Shown here: positions 2,702-49,035 of the stretch, one piece after another
Layout: every line of letters begins with the position of its first letter
Numbering within the stretch: position 1 is the first letter of the stretch
Assembly: GCA_041657885.1 (NCBI GenBank)
Contig: JBBABB010000003.1
Coordinates: forward strand, 1 to 56,409
DNA: 56,409 nucleotides
Source of the DNA: Minisyncoccota bacterium
GTDB taxonomy: Bacteria; Patescibacteriota; Minisyncoccia; Phycocordibacterales; UBA9973
Reading direction: 5' to 3'
Notes under the pieces: model-generated
The model's input: only the letters and a program-made list of their open reading frames with translations
The model's database searches: none
Told to the model about the DNA's origin: nothing
Position numbers and translations under genes: made by a program

Positions 2702-2722
2702 GCGTTAGGCCTTGCCTAACGC
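2702..2722. repeat. GCGTTAGGC-N3-GCCTAACGC hairpin, copy 1 of 2
   Basis: Perfect 9-bp arms. It overlaps the trmD stop codon (TAG). A second copy with the same arms and the complementary loop lies at 54353-54385. Confidence 0.7.
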
Positions 2723-3531
2723 ATTTTCCACTTCTCTATTTTTTTATGGTCGCCCGAGAGAAGAACCGCAGGCACTTTGTATTTCTTTTTATTATAAATT
2801 ATTATTTCAGGGCGAGTATAAACTTCGCTTGTTGAGACACGTTCTTCTTCTCTTGAATCAAAATTCCCTAGAACTCCTTCTATCTGACGTGAAATACAAT
2901 CGATGAGTATCATTGCTGGTATTTCTCCACCAGTGAGTACATAATTCCCTATTGAAATTTTTTTAAATTTACAGAACTTGTCCTGAGCTTGTCGAAGGAT
3001 TTTATCTACACGAGCGTCTATTCCTTCATACCGTCCACAAATCATAATTATGTCGGTATATTTTTTCGCAAAATTTTTAGCAACTTTTGTATCAAACTTT
3101 TCTGCATTAGGAATAAAATTAATAATTAAAATTTTTGGTTTTATTCCCCTCTTGAGGTGAGGTTGGGTAAGGGACCCAACCGTAAAACCTTTTGAGATAT
3201 CTTTGTAATCAAAGTATCCAAAAGGTGTACTGCTCCTGTAAGGAGGGCATCGAAGGGTGGGGTGGAGAATTTTTTTTGTTACATTCTCAACAGCTTTGAG
3301 AACTGGTTCTGCTCGCATGACCATACCTGGACCACCAGCGTATGGTCTATCATCCACCTGAAGAGAAACATTACCATCTGGCCAAACTTTTTTATATTTA
3401 CCTGTAACAAATTTACGAGGGTTTACAAAAGTAATTTTTATTTTTTTATTCTTTATCGCTCTACCTAGAATAGACTCATTCAAATATGAGTCAAACATTT
3501 CTGGGAATAATGTAATAATATGAAAATGCAT
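2716..3531 (-). CDS. trmD: tRNA (guanine37-N1)-methyltransferase TrmD with a 42-aa internal insertion
   Basis: MHFHIITLFPEMF, DDRPYAGGPGMVM, ICGRYEGIDARV and SIGNYVLTGGEIPAMILIDCISR match the TrmD signature regions. It lies in an rpsP-KH-trmD operon context. Confidence 0.9.
   Translation of the reverse strand: MHFHIITLFPEMFDSYLNESILGRAIKNKKIKITFVNPRKFVTGKYKKVWPDGNVSLQVDDRPYAGGPGMVMRAEPVLKAVENVTKKILHPTLRCPPYRSSTPFGYFDYKDISKGFTVGSLTQPHLKRGIKPKILIINFIPNAEKFDTKVAKNFAKKYTDIIMICGRYEGIDARVDKILRQAQDKFCKFKKISIGNYVLTGGEIPAMILIDCISRQIEGVLGNFDSREEERVSTSEVYTRPEIIIYNKKKYKVPAVLLSGDHKKIEKWKMR
3146..3267. repeat. 122-nt structured palindromic element (RPE-like), copy A, in frame inside trmD
   Basis: About 75 percent identical to 48443-48562 by eye. 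The two copies share three hairpins (GGTTGGG..CCCAACC, CTTTG taat CAAAG, CTCC tgtaa GGAG). It corresponds exactly to TrmD residues I88-G129 (ILHPTLRCPPYRSSTPFGYFDYKDISKGFTVGSLTQPHLKRG). Confidence 0.8.
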
Positions 3532-3535
3532 ATAT

Positions 3536-3608
3536 ACTGATCAACACTGATAATAAATACTGATTAGACACTGATAAAAGCTGACTTACACCGATTGATT
3601 CTGATTGG
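3536..3608. repeat. Left arm of the long inverted repeat flanking the GxxExxY gene (CTGAT motif array)
   Basis: actgatcaacactgataataaatactgattagacactgataaaagctgac... closely matches the reverse complement of 4040-4108 (gctgatcaactctgatgg..aactgataaacactgataaaaa). Confidence 0.75.
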
Positions 3609-3993
3609 TAAAATTAATTCTTCGACGAACTTCAACTTTTCTAGGTCCAAAATTTATAAGAAATCCTAAGGGTAATTTTGTTGATTTCAAATAATTCAAT
3701 AATTGAACTTCGTAATCCTTGGGCATAAAATCAACGGCTTTAATTTCAACTACTATATTATCATTTATAACAAAATCTGGGCGATAGACACCAACCTTAA
3801 CATCATCATAACTAATCGTCAAGGATTTTTCTCTTTCAAAATTAATACCTAATTTTTTCAATTCCAAAGCAAGTGCTTTTTGGTAAATTACTTCTTTATG
3901 TCCACCTCCTAAAATATTATGCACATTAAAACAAGCTCCTCTGATTTTATAAGATAAATCTTCGTACATAAAATTCTCAACCTTTTTGTTCAT
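3586..3993 (-). CDS. GxxExxY family protein (PD-(D/E)XK-like); the family is often encoded inside 23S rRNA intervening sequences
   Basis: The translation contains GGGHKEVIYQKAL (GxxExxY), RPDFVI and VVEIKA, and is 135 aa long. These features match my recollection of the GxxExxY family (TIGR04256). Confidence 0.8.
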   Translation of the reverse strand: MNKKVENFMYEDLSYKIRGACFNVHNILGGGHKEVIYQKALALELKKLGINFEREKSLTISYDDVKVGVYRPDFVINDNIVVEIKAVDFMPKDYEVQLLNYLKSTKLPLGFLINFGPRKVEVRRRINFTNQNQSV

Positions 3994-4039
3994 TTAATTC
4001 TCTTGATAATTATCTTTCTAATAAATTCTTCTCTGTTTT

Positions 4040-4108
4040 TATTATATCAGATACTTATTAATTTTTATCAGTGTTTATCAGTTTGAATTCCATCAGAGTT
4101 GATCAGCA
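4040..4108. repeat. Right arm of the inverted repeat flanking the GxxExxY gene (ATCAG motif array)
   Basis: ATCAG occurs at 4046, 4067, 4077, 4092 and 4102. The arm is complementary to the left arm at 3536-3608. Confidence 0.75.
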
Positions 4109-4134
4109 GAAAACCCGCCTTTCGACGGGTTTTC
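4109..4134 (-). terminator. Hairpin terminator after the KH-domain gene
   Basis: GAAAACCCG cctttcga CGGGTTTTC lies 2 nt past the stop codon. On the minus strand the stem is followed by UUUUCU. Confidence 0.6.
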
Positions 4135-4136
4135 GA

Positions 4137-4487
4137 TTAGATACCCTTTAAATCTTCAAGCGCTGAATCAACTGACTTTGATGAATCACTACTTGATGGG
4201 GCTTGACTTGAGACTGGAGCTGAAGGATTTTCAATTTTACCACCTTCTGGCTCATTAATCTTTAGATTAACACGAGCATTATTTTTCATTCCAATAACTC
4301 GCAAAAGAGTTCTTATCGCTTTTGCAGTATTCCCCTGACGACCAATTATCTTACCCATATCTGCCGCATTAACGGTCATAGTTATAAGTACTCCCATCTC
4401 GTCTACTGTACGGTCGATTTTCACATCATCTGGATTATCAACCAAGGCTTTTACAACATATTCTAAAAATGCTTTATCGTCTGCCAT
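4137..4487 (-). CDS. KH-domain RNA-binding protein (YlqC/UPF0109-like) with a Ser/Pro-rich C-terminal tail
   Basis: It contains the GxxG KH motif KIIGRQGNTAKAIRTLL. Its position between rpsP and trmD is the conserved one. Confidence 0.85.
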   Translation of the reverse strand: MADDKAFLEYVVKALVDNPDDVKIDRTVDEMGVLITMTVNAADMGKIIGRQGNTAKAIRTLLRVIGMKNNARVNLKINEPEGGKIENPSAPVSSQAPSSSDSSKSVDSALEDLKGI

Positions 4488-4637
4488 ATCTTTGTTTATA
4501 GTATTATTCTTAAATCTGCGCAGTGTATCGACTACAACCTGCTCTGTTTTAGATTATATCACAAAATTGTTTTACTGTGCAAATAAAAAAATATAATATC
4601 AAAAAGAGCACAATATTAATATTTTATTTATTGGTAA

Positions 4638-4723
4638 CCAAAAAGCACAATATTACATTTTCTGAGTCGCGTCGGAGCCCTTTAGGGTAAAGCGCGAAGA
4701 AAATGTGATATTATGCTTTTTGG
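4638..4723. repeat. Long hairpin carrying a conserved 36-nt GC-rich apical core, copy 1
   Basis: A 25-bp AT-rich stem (4638-4662 / 4699-4723) encloses the core tgagtcgcgtcggagccctttagggtaaagcgcgaa (4663-4698). The core is identical to 33539-33574. Confidence 0.8.
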
Positions 4724-4728
4724 TTTAA

Positions 4729-5034
4729 TTATTTTTTCTTGAGTTCTTTTTTGGCCTTAGTGGGAGATTTCTTTGATAAAACATTTTTCTTTTTACCAGT
4801 AATTAATTTTTGGTGGACAAGAAAATTGTGAACTGTATCAGAAACTTGAGCCCCTTGACTCATCCAATAAGCCACACGGTCTTGTTTAAATAATACCTCA
4901 CCTTTTTTCAAATTATATGAGCCTAATATTTCTTTAAACCTACCGCTCTTAGCTGAATTTTTTGAGTCGGTTAAAACAACCCGAAAAGCAGAATCATTCT
5001 TGCGACCTATTCTTTGTAATCTTATTTTTAACAT
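4729..5034 (-). CDS. rpsP: 30S ribosomal protein S16
   Basis: MLKIRLQRIGRKNDSAFRVV is the canonical S16 N-terminus. I place the start at the internal ATG at 5034 rather than at the ORF-track start of 5073. Confidence 0.9.
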   Translation of the reverse strand: MLKIRLQRIGRKNDSAFRVVLTDSKNSAKSGRFKEILGSYNLKKGEVLFKQDRVAYWMSQGAQVSDTVHNFLVHQKLITGKKKNVLSKKSPTKAKKELKKK

Positions 5035-5069
5035 ATGTAAGAGTATTCTATCATAAAAGAATATATAAA

Positions 5070-6797
5070 TCAAATTGTTGAGAGTTGGAGAAATCGTAAG
5101 AGATCAGGTGGAAGTTCAAAACCTCTTTTATAAAGTTCATTTAGATAAAGTATCGCTTCTTCGTAATTTTTTTGCTCATAATAATATACTGTTAAAGCTT
5201 TCAAGGCATCTATGTAGTTCGGATTAATTTCTAATGTTTTTTTCCAATTAATAAGAGCTTCTTCGTATCTTTTTTGTCCAAAATACAATAATCCTAAATT
5301 AAAATATGCATTATCATAATAAGGATTAATTTCTAATTCTTTTTTATATTCACTTTCAGCCTCTACTAATTTATTTTGATTAGAATAAACAAGCCCTAAA
5401 TTATTGTGAGCCATTGGTTCATTTGGATTAAGTTCTAAGGCTATTTTGAATTCTTTTTCAGCATTATCCATATCTCCATCTAAATATTCCATAGCTCCTA
5501 AATTACTATGATTAAAAGCAAAACTTGGTGATGTTTCCGTAGCATTCTTCCAAAAACTAAGCTTGTCTTTATAATATTGATTACGATAAATTGTTACGGA
5601 AGAAAAAATTAATATTACTAACAAGCTGACAAACAAAATAATTTTTTTCCAATTAATTTCATAATTCATTCTCTTTCTAATAAAAGTCGGGATTCTAATC
5701 CTACCAAGTCCTAGAATCACAAAAATAAATCCAAACATCGGTAGATAAATTCTATTTTCAGAAAATTCAGGAATTGTACCAAGAGGTTTTATTAGTGTTA
5801 GTAAGATAAAAATAAAAAACCACAAAAAGCCAAAAATAATTAATTTTAAATTCTTTTTTTCACTCAAAATAAACCAAAATCCCAATAAAATTAAAGAAAT
5901 TATTCCATAAAATAGAGACATATCATTCATAACTGGAAAGACTGATAAATTAAAAGGTAAAAATATTTTGCCAATAGCAGGAATTAACGACGGTAAATTT
6001 TTATAAATGGAAAGGAAGACATTATAATCAGCATTACCTATAAAATTATGCAAAACCGACATACGTATTAAAAAATAAAAAACTCCTATACCTATAGAAC
6101 TAACTCCAAGTTTAAGATAAATTTTATAATTTTCAATTATTTTTCTCCAACCAACAAAAATTAAAAGGTAAGTCGCGCAAATGACTGGTAATACTACTGC
6201 TGTTTCTTTGGTAAAAAGAGCCAATGTAAAGAAAATTAAATACCATATAAAATATTTATTCTTTTCTGTTTGTAAAAAACCTAAAAAGAAAATAAGTGAT
6301 AAAAAAATAGAAATAACCAAAAGAGAATCATTGCGACCAGAAATAAAAGCTACAGTTTGTGCTGTTAAAGGATGAATACTAAAAATTAACGCGAATAAAA
6401 AGGCTGTTTCTTTTTTAATGTTCAATCTTAATAGAAAAACAAAAAGTAGGCAAATCGCGAGAATATGCAGTAATAGATTACTAAAATGTGACATGAAAAT
6501 GATAGCTCTTTCTCCAAACTGTGCATCTAACATAAATGTAAGTCGTTCAATAGGGCGATAAAAAGTTCCCCCATTATGTGGTGTTCTGAAAATATCTTCA
6601 TTAAAGGCTTGAGGAATATTCAATAAATTTTTATTAAACTGGTATTGTCCTGTTACTAAAACATTGTCATCTAAATAAACAATATTAAAGAAAAGTGTAG
6701 CCCCATAAACTAAAGAGATTAACAAAGTAATCCAAAAAAATGGATGCCATGATTCTAAAAATATTTTATAAAATTTGTTTTCTTTATTATCAATCAT
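5070..6797 (-). CDS. Polytopic membrane protein (GT39/PMT-like glycosyltransferase fold suspected) with C-terminal TPR repeats
   Basis: About 11 hydrophobic segments are followed by TPR units (NLGLVYSNQNKLVEAESEYKKELEINPYYDNAYFNLGLLYF...). It clusters with the GT2 and GtrA genes. Confidence 0.6.
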   Translation of the reverse strand: MIDNKENKFYKIFLESWHPFFWITLLISLVYGATLFFNIVYLDDNVLVTGQYQFNKNLLNIPQAFNEDIFRTPHNGGTFYRPIERLTFMLDAQFGERAIIFMSHFSNLLLHILAICLLFVFLLRLNIKKETAFLFALIFSIHPLTAQTVAFISGRNDSLLVISIFLSLIFFLGFLQTEKNKYFIWYLIFFTLALFTKETAVVLPVICATYLLIFVGWRKIIENYKIYLKLGVSSIGIGVFYFLIRMSVLHNFIGNADYNVFLSIYKNLPSLIPAIGKIFLPFNLSVFPVMNDMSLFYGIISLILLGFWFILSEKKNLKLIIFGFLWFFIFILLTLIKPLGTIPEFSENRIYLPMFGFIFVILGLGRIRIPTFIRKRMNYEINWKKIILFVSLLVILIFSSVTIYRNQYYKDKLSFWKNATETSPSFAFNHSNLGAMEYLDGDMDNAEKEFKIALELNPNEPMAHNNLGLVYSNQNKLVEAESEYKKELEINPYYDNAYFNLGLLYFGQKRYEEALINWKKTLEINPNYIDALKALTVYYYEQKNYEEAILYLNELYKRGFELPPDLLRFLQLSTI

Positions 6798-33509: not shown

Positions 33510-33520
33510 ATATAATTGGA

Positions 33521-33592
33521 GCAGAAAATGAAATTTTATGAGTCGCGTCGGAGCCCTTTAGGGTAAAGCGCGAATAAAATTTTATTTTCTGC
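33521..33592. repeat. Long hairpin carrying the conserved 36-nt GC-rich core, copy 2
   Basis: An 18-bp stem (gcagaaaatgaaatttta / taaaattttattttctgc) is unrelated in sequence to the copy-1 stem. It encloses a core at 33539-33574 that is identical to 4663-4698. Confidence 0.8.
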
Positions 33593-40681: not shown

Positions 40682-40793
40682 GTGCTGGCGGCAACCTACT
40701 TTCCCCGTTTATAGAGTATCATCGGCGCAACGAGACTTAACTTCTGTGTTCGGAATGAGAACAGGTGTGACCCCCGTGTTGAACCACCAACAC
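40682..40793 (-). rRNA. rrf: 5S rRNA
   Basis: The reverse complement reads GTGTTGGTGGTTCAACACGGGGGTCACACCTGTTCTCATTCCGAACACAGAAGTTAAGTCTCGTTGCGCCGATGATACT...GTAGGTTGCCGCCAGCAC. It contains the conserved CCGAAC..AGAAGTTAAG box and a 10-bp terminal helix. Confidence 0.9.
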
Positions 40794-41701: not shown

Positions 41702-41993
41702 TAAACGTAGCTATCAACAAAATATTTTAATTGCTAATAACACCGCCATCACTGGCGGGATCGGACTATATCTTCATCCTTCCATTAATCAATAATAATG
41801 GTTAGGAGATTGGCGTCTAGTCTCTGAGGATTCTTGTTAAAAATTTTAACAAGCCTTTCCTGCTGATTACCTTATCAATTACGAATAAGGGTTCCAGCAT
41901 ATGGCCAATTATTTTATTTTTCTCTTTACACCTATCAAACGTAAAGAAAAAACGCTAATATTATTTCTAATATGGCACCCCGATAATATGTTA
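41702..41993 (-). mobile_element. Group I intron (292 nt, no ORF) after U2500 (E. coli numbering by hand count), in the peptidyl-transferase centre
   Basis: The exons read GTTCGGCACCT | intron | CGATGTCGGCTC. P1 pairs GGCACCU with GGGUGCC (41974-80) with a U.G pair. P10 pairs AUCG with CGAU. The conserved Q (AATCAGCAGGAAAGG), R (CCTCAGAGACTAGACGC) and S (GATGAAGATATAGTCC) elements are present. Confidence 0.8.
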
Positions 41994-42234
41994 AGGTGCC
42001 GAACTCCGCCGTCGATATGAACTCTTAGGCGGAACTAGCCTGTTATCCCTAGAGTAGCTTTTATCCGTTAATCTTCATCCGCATCTAATGCGAAATGTCG
42101 GTTCACTATGTTCTACTTTCGTATCTGCTCGAGATGTACCTCTTACAGTTAAGCTAGCTTGTGCCATTACACTATCGGCACGATTTCCATTCGCGCCTAG
42201 CTAACCTTAATAAACTCCTCCGTTACTCTTTAGG

Positions 42235-43508
42235 CATTTATGTTAACCCAATTTATATTTTAAACTTGGAAGTATATATGGCTCAATTATATTTTTAAAT
42301 AATTGTGCCGATTCGCTATACACATACAGTCTCCATTGTGAATATTGTTTATGTATTCCGACTTTAATTCCAAACTTTTTTTCAAAAACATCTTTAATTA
42401 ACTCAAGCTCATCTTTTGTGTAGCAATTCGAATGAATTATATATGTTTTATGGTGGACAGATTTATATGACCCATCATCCATAAACCACATTGCTAAACT
42501 TTTTTGACTAAACAACTTAAAAATAATTTTAGGCATTACTTTTTTACCATTATGATAAAATTGTTGTCCATAAAATCTAAATATATCGCTTGAAATTGTC
42601 ATAAAACCATAAGATTTTAATTCTTTTCCAAGTGATATTCTTGTTCTTTCTTTTGGAGCTGATATCGTGAATTCCTTAAAAATTTGATACAAATAATCAA
42701 CATATTCTTTCTGTTTGATTGAGTGCTCAACTTTAAGGCGATATGTTCTGCCATTGTTTTGTGTTTCCAAATGGCCATCTCCTAAAATAATTCCTACAAG
42801 AATTTCTTTTTGTTCATCCGTAAGCTTTTCACTAATCGTTTTACTTTGTTTTGTTTTCATATTAGGTTTTCTAATTTTAAATTAGAACTTCATGTCGCCA
42901 TGAAGATCGGACTATATCATCATCTCAACTTTAGTTGAGAGCCAGCGTATAGTCTCTGAGGATTTTTATCAGATTCCCAAAGAAGGAGAAGAAAAAATAT
43001 TGTTATACTTTCTCTTCTCAAAATTTTCAAAACCTTAGATGAGATTTAACTTTTTACAGTCCATGTAGTTGACTCAACAAGATTCAACCAGCCAAAAGTA
43101 TTGTTCAACATACGTCTATGTATTCCTCTACAATCGTTAAGTTGTCCTGATTATACGGACTCTGTCATTATGCTTACACACAATGAGTATCTACCTAAGT
43201 GGTAGCCTACTTTTTCTCCTTGGTCTTGAATTAAATTCAAAGAACATTTCTCCTTCTTTGGAAACCCAATAAATCTTTCCTGCTGATTGTCCGCCGATTT
43301 TTACATCTCACTTTAAGATTTTTACTATTTATATTTTATAATAAATTAGTACTTAAAGATACATGCGGATGTTTCAGCATACAGCTGATTTTCTATCATC
43401 GTTTACACGATGATGTCCCCTTGTTTTATTTTTTTCGAGGTGGATTAGACCTCTCGAGGCGGCATAGTTCGAGAATTCAAATAGAAATTTATTCTGTTTA
43501 AATTCTCG
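42235..43508 (-). mobile_element. Group I intron (1274 nt) carrying a LAGLIDADG homing endonuclease gene, inserted just 3' of the P-loop (about E. coli 2262 by hand count)
   Basis: The exons read ACTGGGGCGGTATCCT | intron | CCTAAAGAGTAACGGAGG. The 5' exon ends in U and the intron ends in G. Q (AATCAGCAGGAAAG), R (CCTCAGAGACTATACGC) and S (GATGATATAGTCC) elements are present. The ORF occupies the 3' third of the intron. Confidence 0.8.
42243..42860 (-). CDS. Double-motif LAGLIDADG homing endonuclease (intron-encoded)
   Basis: It has two LAGLIDADG motifs, ILVGIILGDGHL and LAMWFMDDGS, and is 205 aa long. It lies entirely inside the intron. Confidence 0.85.
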   Translation of the reverse strand: MKTKQSKTISEKLTDEQKEILVGIILGDGHLETQNNGRTYRLKVEHSIKQKEYVDYLYQIFKEFTISAPKERTRISLGKELKSYGFMTISSDIFRFYGQQFYHNGKKVMPKIIFKLFSQKSLAMWFMDDGSYKSVHHKTYIIHSNCYTKDELELIKDVFEKKFGIKVGIHKQYSQWRLYVYSESAQLFKNIIEPYILPSLKYKLG

Positions 43509-43819
43509 AGGATACCGCCCCAGTAAAACTACCCACCAGATACTGTCTCTCTACGTTTTTGCCGTAGAGATTAGAATATATCGTCACAAAGAATGGTATT
43601 TCACTGTCGAGTAAATCACAACCGAGATCGTGACCATCAAACCTCTCCCATCTATGCTACGCAGAATAACCATATACTCAATATCAAGCTGCAGTAAAGC
43701 TTCTAGGGTCTTTTCGTCTATCTGCAGGTAACCGGCATCTTCACCGGTATTGTATTTTCACCGAGCAGGTCTTCGAGACAGCTCTCCAGTCATTATGCCA
43801 TTCGTGCGCGTCGGAACTT

Positions 43820-44059
43820 CATTACTCAACACCAATTTATTTATAAAAATTAGTGTGAACCCTTTATTTCTAAAGGAATGGACTATATCTTCATCCTTAA
43901 TAAATTATTAAGGATGTTTGCGTGTAGTCTCTACGGTGTCCCCGTAAATTATGGGGTTCCCTCGGTATTGCCATATTTAATTTTCATTAAACTTAGGTTT
44001 CACCGATACAGCAAATTATCGATCAGTTTTACAACTGAAAGGGGCAAGTTCCGATACTT
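43820..44059 (-). mobile_element. Minimal group I intron (240 nt, no ORF) after U1951 (E. coli numbering by hand count)
   Basis: The exons read CCTTGTCGGGT | intron | AAGTTCCGACGCGCACGAATGG. P1 pairs GGGUAAGU with ACUUGCCC and has a U.G pair at the splice site. The intron ends in G. R (CCGTAGAGACTACACGC) and S (GATGAAGATATAGTCC) elements are present. Confidence 0.8.
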
Positions 44060-44073
44060 ACCCGACAAGGTAC

Positions 44074-44114
<41 letters not shown>

Positions 44115-44294
44115 CAGGGCTTATATCAGCCAGCCTACATCTTGCGACATAGACCACCGATATTTGACCTTCTGGCATTGGTCAGGCATCACCCCCTATA
44201 CATCCTCTTACGAGTTCGCAGGGAGCTGTGTTTTTGATAAACAGTTGCCAGAGATACTTTCGCTGCGGCCCCGGGCATCACGCTACGCGCGATG

Positions 44295-44377
44295 TTAATT
44301 AAGAATTAATAATTAAAAATTAATAATGAAATACAAAATGCATTCAATTCTTAATTCCTAATTCATAATTATTAATT
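44295..44377 (-). other. AT-rich heptad-periodic hairpin expansion (IVS-like) in the 23S helix 63 region
   Basis: One arm is AATTAAG AATTAAT AATTAAA AATTAAT AATGAAA. The complementary arm is TTCTTAA TTCCTAA TTCATAA TTATTAA. Both have an exact 7-nt period and are embedded where E. coli has the short helix 63. Confidence 0.7.
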
Positions 44378-45040
44378 GCATCACATGCAATGTGATGCCT
44401 AGGGCAAGCCTTATTCCAAAGTTACGGCTGCTTGTTTGCCGAGTTCCTTGAAGACCTCTCACTCGTTCGCCTTGGTCTACTCGACCTGATTACCTGTGTC
44501 GGTTTACGGTACGGATTCTATTTCATTAACCTTAGATACTTTTCTTGGAAGCGTGCTTTATAAAATCTGCCTCGACGAATCGAAACATTTATGCCTCGCT
44601 TGGGTGCCACTTTTACGTGCATCTTCCGGATTTTCCTGGAAGAAACCCTCACTAACATACTCAAATCCAATAATGAGCTTTATATACTACACTCCGTCCT
44701 ATCATCGAATAAAATAGAAGTCAGGGAATATTAACCCTGTGCCCATCGGATGCGGCTATCGCCATTTCCTTAGGACCGACTAACCCTGGGGTGATTACCA
44801 TTGCCCAGGAAACCTTAATCTTTCGGCGGGAAGGGATCTCACCTTCCTTGCGGTTACTTGTGCCAACATTCTTACTTCCACACGCTCCACCATGGGTCAC
44901 CCCTTTGGCTTCGACGCTGAGTGGAAAACTCTCCTACCGCTCCCAATTTTAAAAAAATGGAAGCCCTCAATTTCGGTATTATGTTTAGCCCCGATTATTT
45001 TCGGTGCGAAATCTCTGGATGAGTGAGCTGTTACGCTTTC

Positions 45041-45072
<32 letters not shown>

Positions 45073-45203
45073 TCATTGTCAGAGAAATTTCACCTCCTTG
45101 ATTTGCACTTAACATAAATTTAGGGACCTTAATTAGAGATCTGGGCTGTTTCCCTTTTGGCTGATGGAGCTTCGCCCCCATAGCCTAACTGCCGTGTTTT
45201 TTA

Positions 45204-45338
45204 CCCCCACACCTACTTTACCATCGTTCTGTTTTTTCAAAACAACATTAACATTATTTTAATATTCTAATTAATAATATTATTTTTAATAATACAATCA
45301 ATACAGAACAAAAAACAATGGCAAAGTAGGTGTGGGGG
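45204..45338 (-). repeat. 135-nt hairpin IVS in 23S helix 45 (CCCCCACACCTA family, copy 1)
   Basis: cccccacacctactttaccatcgttctg...cagaacaaaaaacaatggcaaagtaggtgtggggg replaces the helix-45 tip, between GAATACTAAGAGTAAAC and TAAAAAACACGGCAG. It is about 98 percent identical to 46076-46212. Confidence 0.85.
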
Positions 45339-45725
45339 TTTACTCTTAGTATTCGGAGTTTGATAGAATTCGCGAGATTACTCCCTGTCGAAACCTTCCA
45401 GTGCTCTACCCCTAAGAGGAACACACGACGCTAGCCCTAAAGCTATTTCGGAGAGAACCAGCTATTACCAGGTTCGATTAGTTTTTCACTCCTTACCACA
45501 AGTCATCCGAGACTATTGCACGGGTCACCGGTTCGGACCTCCATCTGCCTTTCGACAAACTTCATCCTGCTCATGGCAAGCTCACCTGGCTTCGGGTCTT
45601 ATCTAGACTACATTTATTTCGCGCTATTAACACTCGGTTTCCCTAAGGCTCCACTGTTCTAACAGCTTAGCCTGCAGCATAGATAAACTCGTTGGCTCAT
45701 TCTTCAATAGGCACGCCGTGACGGA

Positions 45726-45771
45726 CAGAACAAAATTTTCGAAAAAAATTCCTTTCAAAAATTTTGTTCTG
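45726..45771 (-). other. Extended helix 25 hairpin (small IVS-like expansion)
   Basis: CAGAACAAAATTTT cgaaaaaaattcctttca AAAATTTTGTTCTG lies at the helix-25 position. It shares the CAGAACAAAA string with the 135-nt IVS family. Confidence 0.6.
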
Positions 45772-45826
45772 CCCGCTCCGACTCCTTGTAAGTATATGGT
45801 TTCAGGTCTATTTCACTCCCCTTATC

Positions 45827-45869
<43 letters not shown>

Positions 45870-46075
45870 ATCTAAAAAAGTATTTAGCCTTACCAGTTAG
45901 TTCTGGTGGATTCGCTCAAGCTATTCGTGTCTTGAGTTACTCAAGAATGACAATCAAGAAGATGTGAAATTTTCAACCACCGGGCTATCACCGTCTATGG
46001 CTCTTCTTTCCAGAAGATTAATCTAACAACACATTTTGTAACTTCTCTAGATAAATCTACATTGTCATCTTACAA

Positions 46076-46212
46076 CCCCCCCACACCTACTTTACCATCG
46101 TTCTGTTTTTTCAAAACAACATCAACATTATTTTAATATTCTAATTAATAATATTATTTTTGATAATACAATCAATGCAGAACAAAAAACAATGGCAAAG
46201 TAGGTGTGGGGG
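46076..46212 (-). repeat. 137-nt hairpin IVS in 23S domain I (CCCCCACACCTA family, copy 2)
   Basis: It has the same sequence as 45204-45338 apart from 3 substitutions. It is inserted right after AGTAGCGGCGAGCGAAAAGGAAAGAGCCCAAA. Confidence 0.85.
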
Positions 46213-46496
46213 TTTGGGCTCTTTCCTTTTCGCTCGCCGCTACTCAGAAAATAAATATTTTTCTCTTTTCCTCCAGGTACTGAAATGTTTTACTTCCCTG
46301 GGTATGCTCTTTTGTGTCAAGCACAAAAGTTTCTAAGGATTACTTAGAAGGGTTTCCCCATTCAGAAATTTCCGGATCAAAGGTTGCTAGGCACCTCCCC
46401 GAAACGTATCGCCGCCATGCTACGTCTTTCATCGCCTTTTTTAGTCTAGGCATCCGCCATATACTCTTATATTTCCTATTAGGAAATATGAAAACC

Positions 46497-48442: not shown

Positions 48443-48562
48443 CCTCCCCTGCTAAGGGGTGAGCTTGGGCAAGGGACCCAAGCGCAAGACCTTGAACGTT
48501 TTGTAATCAAAATGTGAAAGGTGTACTGCTCCTGTAAGGAGGTGCCAAAGGCGGAGGGGTGA
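48443..48562. repeat. 120-nt structured palindromic element (RPE-like), copy B, intergenic
   Basis: It aligns along its whole length with 3146-3267. Stem changes are compensatory: GCTTGGG/CCCAAGC against GGTTGGG/CCCAACC, and TTTTG/CAAAA against CTTTG/CAAAG. The block aaggtgtactgctcctgtaaggagg is identical in both. Confidence 0.8.
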
Positions 48563-48567
48563 ATTAT

Positions 48568-49035
48568 TTACCTCAACGTAACCTTACCACCCGCTGTTTC
48601 CAATTTCTTCTTAAATTCTTCTGCTTCAACTTTTTTCATACCTTCTTTAAGTACTGAAGGAGCGCCATCAACTAAATCCTTTGCTTCTTTAAGTCCAAGA
48701 GCAAGAACTTCTTTGACAACTTTCATAACGGCAATTTTCTGTTCACCTGCAACTGTAAGCTCAACAGTAAAAACACTTTTTTCCTCAACTGCCTCCCCTA
48801 CGACTGCAGGACCAGCTGATGCGACTGTGGCTGCTGAGACCCCAAACTTTTCTTCTAATATTTTTACAAGTTCGTGCAAATCAAGAACTGACATTTCTTC
48901 TATTTTTGAAACTATGTCCTTGAATTTTGCAGGAACCCCGCCTGAATGATTTTCAGATCGGGCAGGTGTTGTTTTAGCATTAGTCTTTTCTTCTTTTTTG
49001 ACTTCTGCTTTCTCTTCCATTTTTGTTTCTTCCAT
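48568..49035 (-). CDS. rplL: 50S ribosomal protein L7/L12 with a Lys/Glu-rich N-terminal extension of about 35 aa
   Basis: [28 protein letters not shown], a hinge, and the C-terminal domain [27 protein letters not shown] are present. Confidence 0.9.

Follow-up and report, generated by a model that had tools for sequence, protein, structure and literature searches.

What is a small nuclease gene doing between two inverted arrays of short motifs in the rpsP-KH-trmD operon of a Minisyncoccota bacterium? The locus lies in a stretch of 56,409 bases (the window; coordinates given without a locus name are window-based), in which rpsP, the KH-domain gene, the GxxExxY gene and trmD all stand on the minus strand. 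The nearest named relatives of the window are Candidatus Nomurabacteria and other metagenome-assembled genomes (MAGs) of Patescibacteria, which places the organism in the Candidate Phyla Radiation (CPR). A preliminary description of this DNA reported a 135-aa GxxExxY open reading frame (ORF) between the KH gene and trmD, flanked by inverted CTGAT/ATCAG arms, and likened the arrangement to the ORF-bearing intervening sequences (IVSs) of 23S rRNA, in which RNase III cuts a long stem. The gene and its arms were borne out; the IVS-like module was not. Based on our analysis, there is about an even chance that the 573-bp unit is a selfish nuclease cassette of a homing-like kind, with arms that serve as phased recognition sites and mark its ends. 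The window would then hold one copy of a selfish cassette that is widespread, occurs in Patescibacteria and in some other phyla, and has apparently gone undescribed.

Inward-pointing arrays around a nuclease gene

On the plus strand of the window, five CTGAT motifs lie within 3537-3601 and five ATCAG motifs within 4046-4102, and these two arms are the only clusters of at least three such motifs in all 56,409 bases. Both complementary pairs quoted in the preliminary description were recovered, 3537-3551 with 4092-4106 and 3565-3579 with 4063-4077 (15 nt and 93% each). The arms also fold better than shuffled controls. Taken alone they form 40 pairs, with a dG of -44.9 kcal/mol under RNA parameters (z = -5.8, 0/300 dinucleotide shuffles) and of -28.2 under DNA parameters (z = -6.7), and in the minimum free energy (MFE) fold of 3520-4145 on the minus strand they are paired around the ORF (z = -4.1, 0/20 shuffles). 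The architecture first described therefore stood, with corrections to the layout: the unit reads on the minus strand, the GxxExxY ORF runs into the 3' arm with its last seven codons and its stop, and a terminator-type hairpin and a predicted -10 box are added (Table 1).

The flanks of other GxxExxY genes, which the preliminary description had suggested surveying, carry the same inverted arrays. A scan of one genome per GTDB species gave 80 loci and, with the orthologues described below, 82 non-redundant GxxExxY loci, 74 of them away from the KH|trmD junction. The motif of the family is RCNGAT, with the variants CTGAT, CGGAT, CAGAT and occasionally CTGAA. Upstream of the gene, sense motifs average 3.48 and antisense motifs 0.33; downstream, antisense motifs average 3.18 and sense motifs 0.46, against a background of 0.57. 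At least two sense motifs upstream combined with at least two antisense motifs downstream were found at 61/82 loci, and the reverse arrangement at none (0/82). Distances between successive motifs peak sharply at 10 nt in both arms: the spacing is exactly 10 nt in 53/114 and 61/110 cases in free-standing copies, and in 45/87 and 33/74 cases in copies that lie in frame inside other proteins, 10 being no multiple of 3. Free-standing genes elsewhere come in the same package at the nusG|rplK junction (in three lineages), upstream of dnaB and beside giant Laminin_G_3 surface-protein genes. RCNGAT-family motifs also flank GxxExxY genes in Omnitrophota, a Planctomycetia-labelled MAG and Treponema; at plasmid loci of bacteria outside the CPR the arrays are shrunk to lone motif copies, inverted or direct, a suggestive but thin finding. 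An oriented motif repeated once per helical turn is a signature of protein recognition on duplex nucleic acid, and not of an arbitrary RNA stem. Judged from these sequence patterns, the arms are most likely phased, putative protein-binding sites on duplex or hairpin DNA.

The stability of the stem formed by the arms, its closure around the ORF and the complementarity of the flanks across the family (median z = -2.7 relative to shuffles at the 82 loci), with arms able to pair over 60-76 bp in G+C-rich in-frame copies, are what speaks for an IVS-like RNA module. In such a module, rpsP-KH read-through RNA would form the stem, and an RNase III cut would release the ORF RNA and sever trmD; 23S IVSs likewise hold an ORF in the loop of a long stem made of complementary flanks. 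What is conserved in the cassette family, however, is the motif, its 10-nt spacing and its polarity, and not nested complementarity. The variable base of the motif shows no covariation in register (99 matches against 101.3 +/- 3.5 after permutation), and a strand test of G-U against A-C oppositions found no overall bias between sense and antisense duplex energies (mean difference +2 kcal/mol); at the dominant variable base, A in the 5' arm faces C in the 3' arm more often than the reverse (10 loci against 1). Nor does the setting agree, as no rRNA gene was found within 2.5 kb of any of 34 sampled loci (31 free-standing, 3 on plasmids), and the 23S gene of the window is at about 41.7-46.5 kb. 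In the searchable literature GxxExxY is described neither in IVSs nor as an insertion in housekeeping proteins. The ORFs in CPR rRNA insertions are reported to encode LAGLIDADG, GIY-YIG and 23S_rRNA_IVP domains, and in the main text and one supplementary file of that study PDDEXK is not among the domains named (PMC11270868). With the transcription signals and the in-frame copies discussed below, an IVS-like module is very unlikely.

The protein matches PF13366 PDDEXK_3 (2.3e-37, 128.4 bits; cut-off 22) and the NCBIfam model TIGR04256 GxxExxY (2e-38, 131.4 bits; cut-off 35), and its catalytic site is intact (E34...P72-D73...E83-x-K85). Residues E34, Y70, P72, D73, E83, K85, Y101, N114 and F115 are kept in 82/82 copies, internal stop codons occur in 0/82, and purifying selection is strong (mean pN 0.115). 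The AF2 model (pLDDT 90.8) has a PD-(D/E)XK fold, whose best matches in the PDB are Cas4 SSO0001, lambda exonuclease, Hjc resolvases and splicing endonucleases (TM 0.4-0.5). Among sequence profiles of solved structures only T7 endonuclease I was matched, marginally (E = 0.14), and a specific function was not assigned from this match and the generic folds. As modelled, the protein is a minimal PD-(D/E)XK nuclease without a close characterised relative. An exhaustive profile search placed 24,490 clusters at 50% identity in the family (E <= 1e-3), and the 150 best include many proteins that are long with the domain embedded in them or that have two domains in tandem. About 35 of these 150 (P0121, P0122, P0141, P0147 and some 30 more) are about 260-275 aa long with two tandem GxxExxY domains. 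The searchable literature records no function for GxxExxY/PDDEXK_3. A role in defence was considered and set aside: there were no PADLOC matches, and PHROG matches were weak and mostly of unknown function, the weakest being annotated 'endonuclease'.

The invariant active site, the strong purifying selection and the size of the family would also suit a domesticated host nuclease that serves the cell in processing or repairing nucleic acids, is passed on vertically and has often been lost, with the arms as autoregulatory operators. GxxExxY cores do cluster mainly by insertion site, and a 10-nt phased array beside a promoter resembles an operator. Yet operators would be needless on the 3' side of the gene and inside the coding sequence of a host protein, and the absence of PADLOC defence matches is a further point against this reading. 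Patchy occupancy among close relatives, a mosaic block of identity, decaying cargo and hairpins without an ORF, all described below, also argue against a domesticated nuclease, which we regard as unlikely.

The KH|trmD junction

For the GxxExxY proteins that are closest (72-92% identity) the contigs were traced, and L093 and L094 from GTDB and L052 and L073, two metagenome contigs reached via TrmD, were added. All of them sit at the same KH|trmD junction. Across 14 loci the order is constant: KH stop, terminator hairpin, 5' arm with 4-5 CTGAT/CCGAT motifs, GxxExxY gene, 3' arm with 3-5 ATCAG motifs overlapping the last codons, and trmD ATG. The inverted arms are thus kept in every orthologue, and the 3' arm lies 5-6 nt from the trmD ATG in all of them. 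Most also have a recognisable extended -10 box (TGnTAnAAT) at the equivalent position. In the window this box and the GxxExxY ATG are separated by a 42-nt leader (3996-4037); it is missing in the metagenome relatives X3 and X6, where the box adjoins the ATG. An optional cargo gene can be placed between the box and the GxxExxY gene, inside the arms: a P-loop kinase-like gene (L001-L006), GrpB (L173) or a 50-aa GrpB remnant (L177, L178).

These signals bear on how the arms could meet in RNA. The preliminary description assumed one polycistronic transcript; with a terminator ahead of the 5' arm and a promoter-like box behind it, a transcript of the cassette itself would lack that arm, and the stem could fold only through terminator read-through. 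A consensus scan for promoters and terminators reported neither the box nor the KH hairpin because its rules demand a -35 match and a longer T run, and both were judged by conservation instead. The order of the units tells against a conserved stem as well. In the window the 3' arm has ATCAGTGTTGATCAG, complementary to the outermost unit of the 5' arm, as its outer unit; in L001, L052, L094 and L175-L177 it is the inner one, and therefore nested complementarity is not conserved. In both respects the cassette differs from 23S IVSs, having conserved phased motif arrays in place of arbitrary complementarity and a terminator and promoter that separate its arms from the neighbouring genes.

The position of the 3' arm, directly ahead of the trmD ATG in all orthologues, raises the question of whether the arms regulate trmD. 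Under this scenario, 5'/3' arm pairing in read-through RNA would occlude trmD initiation, and transcripts from the internal promoter, which lack the 5' arm, would be translated. Cassette-free junctions often carry GTAGTA/TACTAC or CTAG arrays abutting the ATG (L025, L028-L030, L034, L059, L071, L082), which also counts for such a role. However, RCNGAT arms are found in unrelated settings (nusG|rplK, giant surface-protein genes, inside ORFs) and therefore belong to the cassette and not to trmD, and in most relatives a bare terminator and promoter suffices. Regulation of trmD by the arms is accordingly distinctly unlikely. With the predicted box as its promoter and the 3' arm 5 nt ahead of its ATG, trmD in the window is probably transcribed from the cassette.

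Occupancy of the junction is patchy. A scan of TrmD relatives (80 loci, 62-72% identity) gave 62 distinct KH-trmD junction sequences, of which two hold the cassette and two hold other genes. In the other 58, KH and trmD are neighbours across gaps of 4-277 nt with at most one CTGAT or ATCAG. Filled or empty, nearly all junctions of more than a few bases have an equivalent hairpin after KH. In a soil-metagenome contig (X3) at least 85% identical to the window, 3533 is joined to 4220 and the cassette is skipped. A landfill DNA metagenome carries the window sequence almost in full; none of the RNA runs searched had the window cassette or two of the in-frame LepA cassettes, which were met in DNA metagenomes only.

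The cassette and its flanks do not diverge alike. In hosts whose TrmD is just 50-53% identical to that of the window, GxxExxY is 77-79% identical. In 35/45 pairs the synonymous measure pS of GxxExxY is below those of KH and trmD alike (mean 0.60 against 0.75 and 0.73), values that are near saturation. L007 and L093 are 97-100% identical from the T-run of the terminator through arms and ORF to about 100 nt of trmD, as against about 77% in the tail of KH and mostly 73-85% in the remaining trmD; the sole difference in their arms is one 7-nt unit gained or lost. This block fits the pattern left by a recombination tract carrying the cassette, in metagenome assemblies that are possibly chimeric. The patchy presence at one site and the near-identical block in diverged flanks are in keeping with the mobile cassette that the preliminary description offered as a fallback.

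Other insertions and repeats were seen in the same region. L091 (1125-1784) has an IS200-like Y1 transposase (1.8e-7), unrelated to GxxExxY, and a 178-aa ORF in the KH-trmD junction; L079 (1741-2418, minus) has a 225-aa ORF there on the opposite strand; and L060 (1206-1811) has a 201-aa ORF between rpsP and KH. In many cassette-free KH-trmD regions a conserved hairpin of about 100 nt (ccccatctgctttgttgcag...gcgcctcgcatctgggg) replaces the simple terminator (L016, L018, L027, L033, L039, L040, L043, L046, L054, L063, L064, L069, L070, L081, L089). In L025, L028, L029, L030, L034, L059, L060, L071, L078 and L082 the terminator is flanked by inverted arrays of other kinds (GTAGTA.../...TACTAC; CTAG-type) that reach up to the trmD ATG; several of these regions have a TTGCAT -35-like box, and the arrays may be a different repeat family or a leader structure of trmD.

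Copies inside core proteins and arrays without a gene

Of the 74 loci at other sites, 43 have the GxxExxY domain inside an open frame of more than 230 codons. According to the ORF translations and Pfam, the hosts of these in-frame copies include LepA/EF4, RecG, leucyl-tRNA synthetase (LeuRS), another class-I aminoacyl-tRNA synthetase (aaRS), and transketolase-like, GT2 glycosyltransferase and YdjC-like proteins. The inserts are about 150-170 aa long. In LepA/EF4 the copy replaces the loop between 'GITIK.QPVRM' and 'LNLIDTPGH', and in RecG it is placed between the DEAD and Helicase_C domains. Inteins were considered and rejected: in 10 host proteins Pfam found PDDEXK_3 and the host domains, and no Hint domain. 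The arms of the in-frame copies are translated into linkers of low complexity, such as ..RINADLTRIDAD.. and ..SIRDNPRRNQRESA.., and the frame is open through both arms in 43/43 copies. In the LepA-embedded copy of L104 the 3' arm (2882-2971) consists of a 21-nt unit, AGTCCGCAACTGTCTGCGTCA, repeated four times in perfect tandem and translated as SPQLSAS x4, and arrays can therefore grow by unit duplication.

As the frame is kept open through the arms in every one of these copies, an essential synthetase included, we argue that the insert is translated and that obligatory RNase III excision is absent. Excision without religation in LeuRS, LepA or RecG would destroy the host mRNA. The IVS-like module thus meets a further difficulty in family members that stand in frame in protein genes.

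Arrays also occur without the gene. A forward array followed by a reverse array with no ORF between them makes hairpins of 60-100 nt (Table 1), and one of these lies in frame in LepA and is translated as an extra peptide segment. Counting only arrays of at least four motifs more than 300 nt from a cassette, 292 kb of GxxExxY loci hold 40 extra arrays against 0.9 expected; 317 kb of cassette-free trmD loci hold three, and the remaining window none.

The window contains further repeats and insertions. Its TrmD has 271 aa against about 220-235 aa in relatives, with an extra segment of about 45 aa in a variable loop. The segment is encoded by a structured element (3137-3260, minus; fold z = -4.7) that shows a 5-fold excess of depth in metagenome contigs and has a second, partial copy at 48460-48580; it looks like a dispersed repeat, similar to a MITE (miniature inverted-repeat transposable element), inserted in frame. 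A long hairpin between rpsP and KH (4593-4774; aaaaagcacaatattacattttc...gaaaatgtgatattatgcttttt) has a 6-8-fold excess of depth in metagenome contigs and a further copy at 33520-33590, whose core (33533-33580) matches 46/48 bases, and is a second dispersed repeat family. Two group I introns (Rfam 90.4 and 85.9 bits) interrupt the 23S rRNA gene (41742-46466), for which the match to the large-subunit (LSU) model is split and ends at model position 2284 of 2925. The 5S gene is at 40683-40791.

Table 1. Cassette and operon features in the window, and array hairpins without an ORF at other loci
Feature	Sequence	Position	Strand	Basis or remark
rpsP (ribosomal protein S16)	window	4729-5073	minus	Pfam Ribosomal_S16 3.2e-13; upstream neighbour, outside cassette
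KhpA-type KH-domain gene	window	4137-4487	minus	Pfam KH_KhpA-B 5.7e-21; upstream boundary gene
Terminator-type hairpin AAAACCCGUCGAAAGGCGGGUUUU, G+C-rich	window	4110-4133	minus	11-bp stem (MFE fold); directly past KH stop, outside 5' arm
5' arm, sense CTGAT-type (RCNGAT) array, about 10-nt spacing	window	4040-4108	minus	kept in 14 orthologous loci
Predicted extended -10 box TGATATAAT, promoter-like	window	4041-4049	minus	conservation; inner edge of 5' arm
GxxExxY / PDDEXK_3 nuclease gene, 135 aa	window	3586-3993	minus	Pfam, NCBIfam, intact catalytic site
3' arm, antisense ATCAG-type array	window	3536-3608	minus	motif and pairing analysis; ends 5 nt short of trmD ATG
trmD, downstream boundary gene	window	2716-3531	minus	NCBIfam TrmD 4.3e-61
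ORF-less array hairpin	L124	1715-1773
ORF-less array hairpin	L124	3367-3423
ORF-less array hairpin	L132	256-338
ORF-less array hairpin	L099	1019-1120
ORF-less array hairpin	L111	1448-1517
ORF-less array hairpin, in frame in LepA	L154	3542-3624		translated as extra peptide segment

A proposed selfish cassette and its relation to known elements

Given the above, the cassette can be pictured as a minimal PD-(D/E)XK gene bracketed by inward-pointing arrays of 6-7-bp motifs spaced one helical turn apart. The encoded nuclease presumably binds the arms, which would mark the ends of the element, and nuclease-stimulated, homing-like recombination would maintain and spread the cassette at fixed 'allelic' sites, among them the junctions KH|trmD and nusG|rplK and surface loops in the proteins LepA, RecG and LeuRS. 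In the window the cassette, downstream of the KH terminator, would bring its own extended -10 promoter, and trmD would make use of it.

The selfish, homing-like cassette is favoured by the polarity and phasing of the arrays and their occurrence in other phyla, by the invariant E34, D73, E83 and K85, and by the occupancy of the junction and the L007/L093 block. The pS pattern, the clustering of cores by site, the in-frame copies, the ORF-less hairpins and the cargo also count for it. Several points weigh on the other side. A PD-(D/E)XK nuclease cuts but cannot join DNA, which leaves the integration step unexplained. No target-site duplication or direct repeat was seen at the boundaries read by eye, without a systematic scan, in the window and the orthologues. 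The remainder of the 56-kb window has no second array, so this lineage gives no sign of activity. The clustering by site and the near-saturated pS also suit old vertical inheritance with many losses, and the L007/L093 mosaic, coming from metagenome assemblies, could be chimeric. The arms pair well, above all in the G+C-rich in-frame copies, and may have a hairpin role in RNA or single-stranded DNA; and if anything binds them, it could be a host factor.

A stronger proposal is that GxxExxY genes and their helically phased RCNGAT arrays, with ORF-less derivatives and in-frame sites that need no intein, form an undescribed class of autonomous selfish element whose nuclease recognises its own arrays. 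We hold this to be possible, at rather less than an even chance. In the searchable literature we found no description of a cassette that combines a PD-(D/E)XK gene, phased inverted arrays and intein-less residence in core proteins. Selfish nuclease genes, in-frame palindromic elements and repeat-flanked mobilising enzymes are each known kinds, and the cassette shares features with all of them. Like homing endonuclease genes (T4 seg/mob and the PD-(D/E)XK enzyme I-Ssp6803I), it is a small nuclease gene at a fixed site in or beside conserved genes, with patchy presence, site-specific lineages and, in one pair of metagenome assemblies, a near-identical block that extends into the flanks as a co-conversion tract might. 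Homing genes, however, are without terminal inverted motif arrays or ORF-less derivatives, and within proteins they ride in inteins.

Repetitive extragenic palindromic (REP) sequences and REPINs with their RAYT genes likewise pair a nuclease-type gene flanked by inverted short repeats with dispersed ORF-less inverted doublets. The cassette differs in encoding a PD-(D/E)XK nuclease and not a Y1 (HUH) transposase, in that copies can lie inside coding sequence, and in its repeats, which are arrays of 6-7-bp motifs at 10 nt where REPs are palindromes of 20-40 nt. Rickettsia palindromic elements (RPEs) and in-gene MITEs resemble the LepA hairpin of L154 in being palindromic repeats that are translated in frame. 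RPEs carry no gene, whereas the cassette encodes a folded nuclease domain between its arms and looks autonomous. The ends of Tn7 and Mu also have several oriented short sites pointing inward, but the cassette has no DDE or serine/tyrosine recombinase and no detected target-site duplication, and its occupancy is site-specific. Compared with MITEs and transposons with terminal inverted repeats, it has such repeats, and its only conserved gene is a PD-(D/E)XK nuclease.

For the GxxExxY family as a whole, a specific cis element, inward-pointing RCNGAT arrays with a 10-nt period, provides a testable hypothesis. The cassette would account for puzzling insertions in CPR core proteins, LepA, RecG, aminoacyl-tRNA synthetases and transketolase among them; these insertions could be mistaken for lineage-specific domains and may mislead annotation, phylogeny and the prediction of structures. 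If the nuclease is indeed specific for the arrays, the family would represent a new type of homing or mobile element that needs neither an intron nor an intein.

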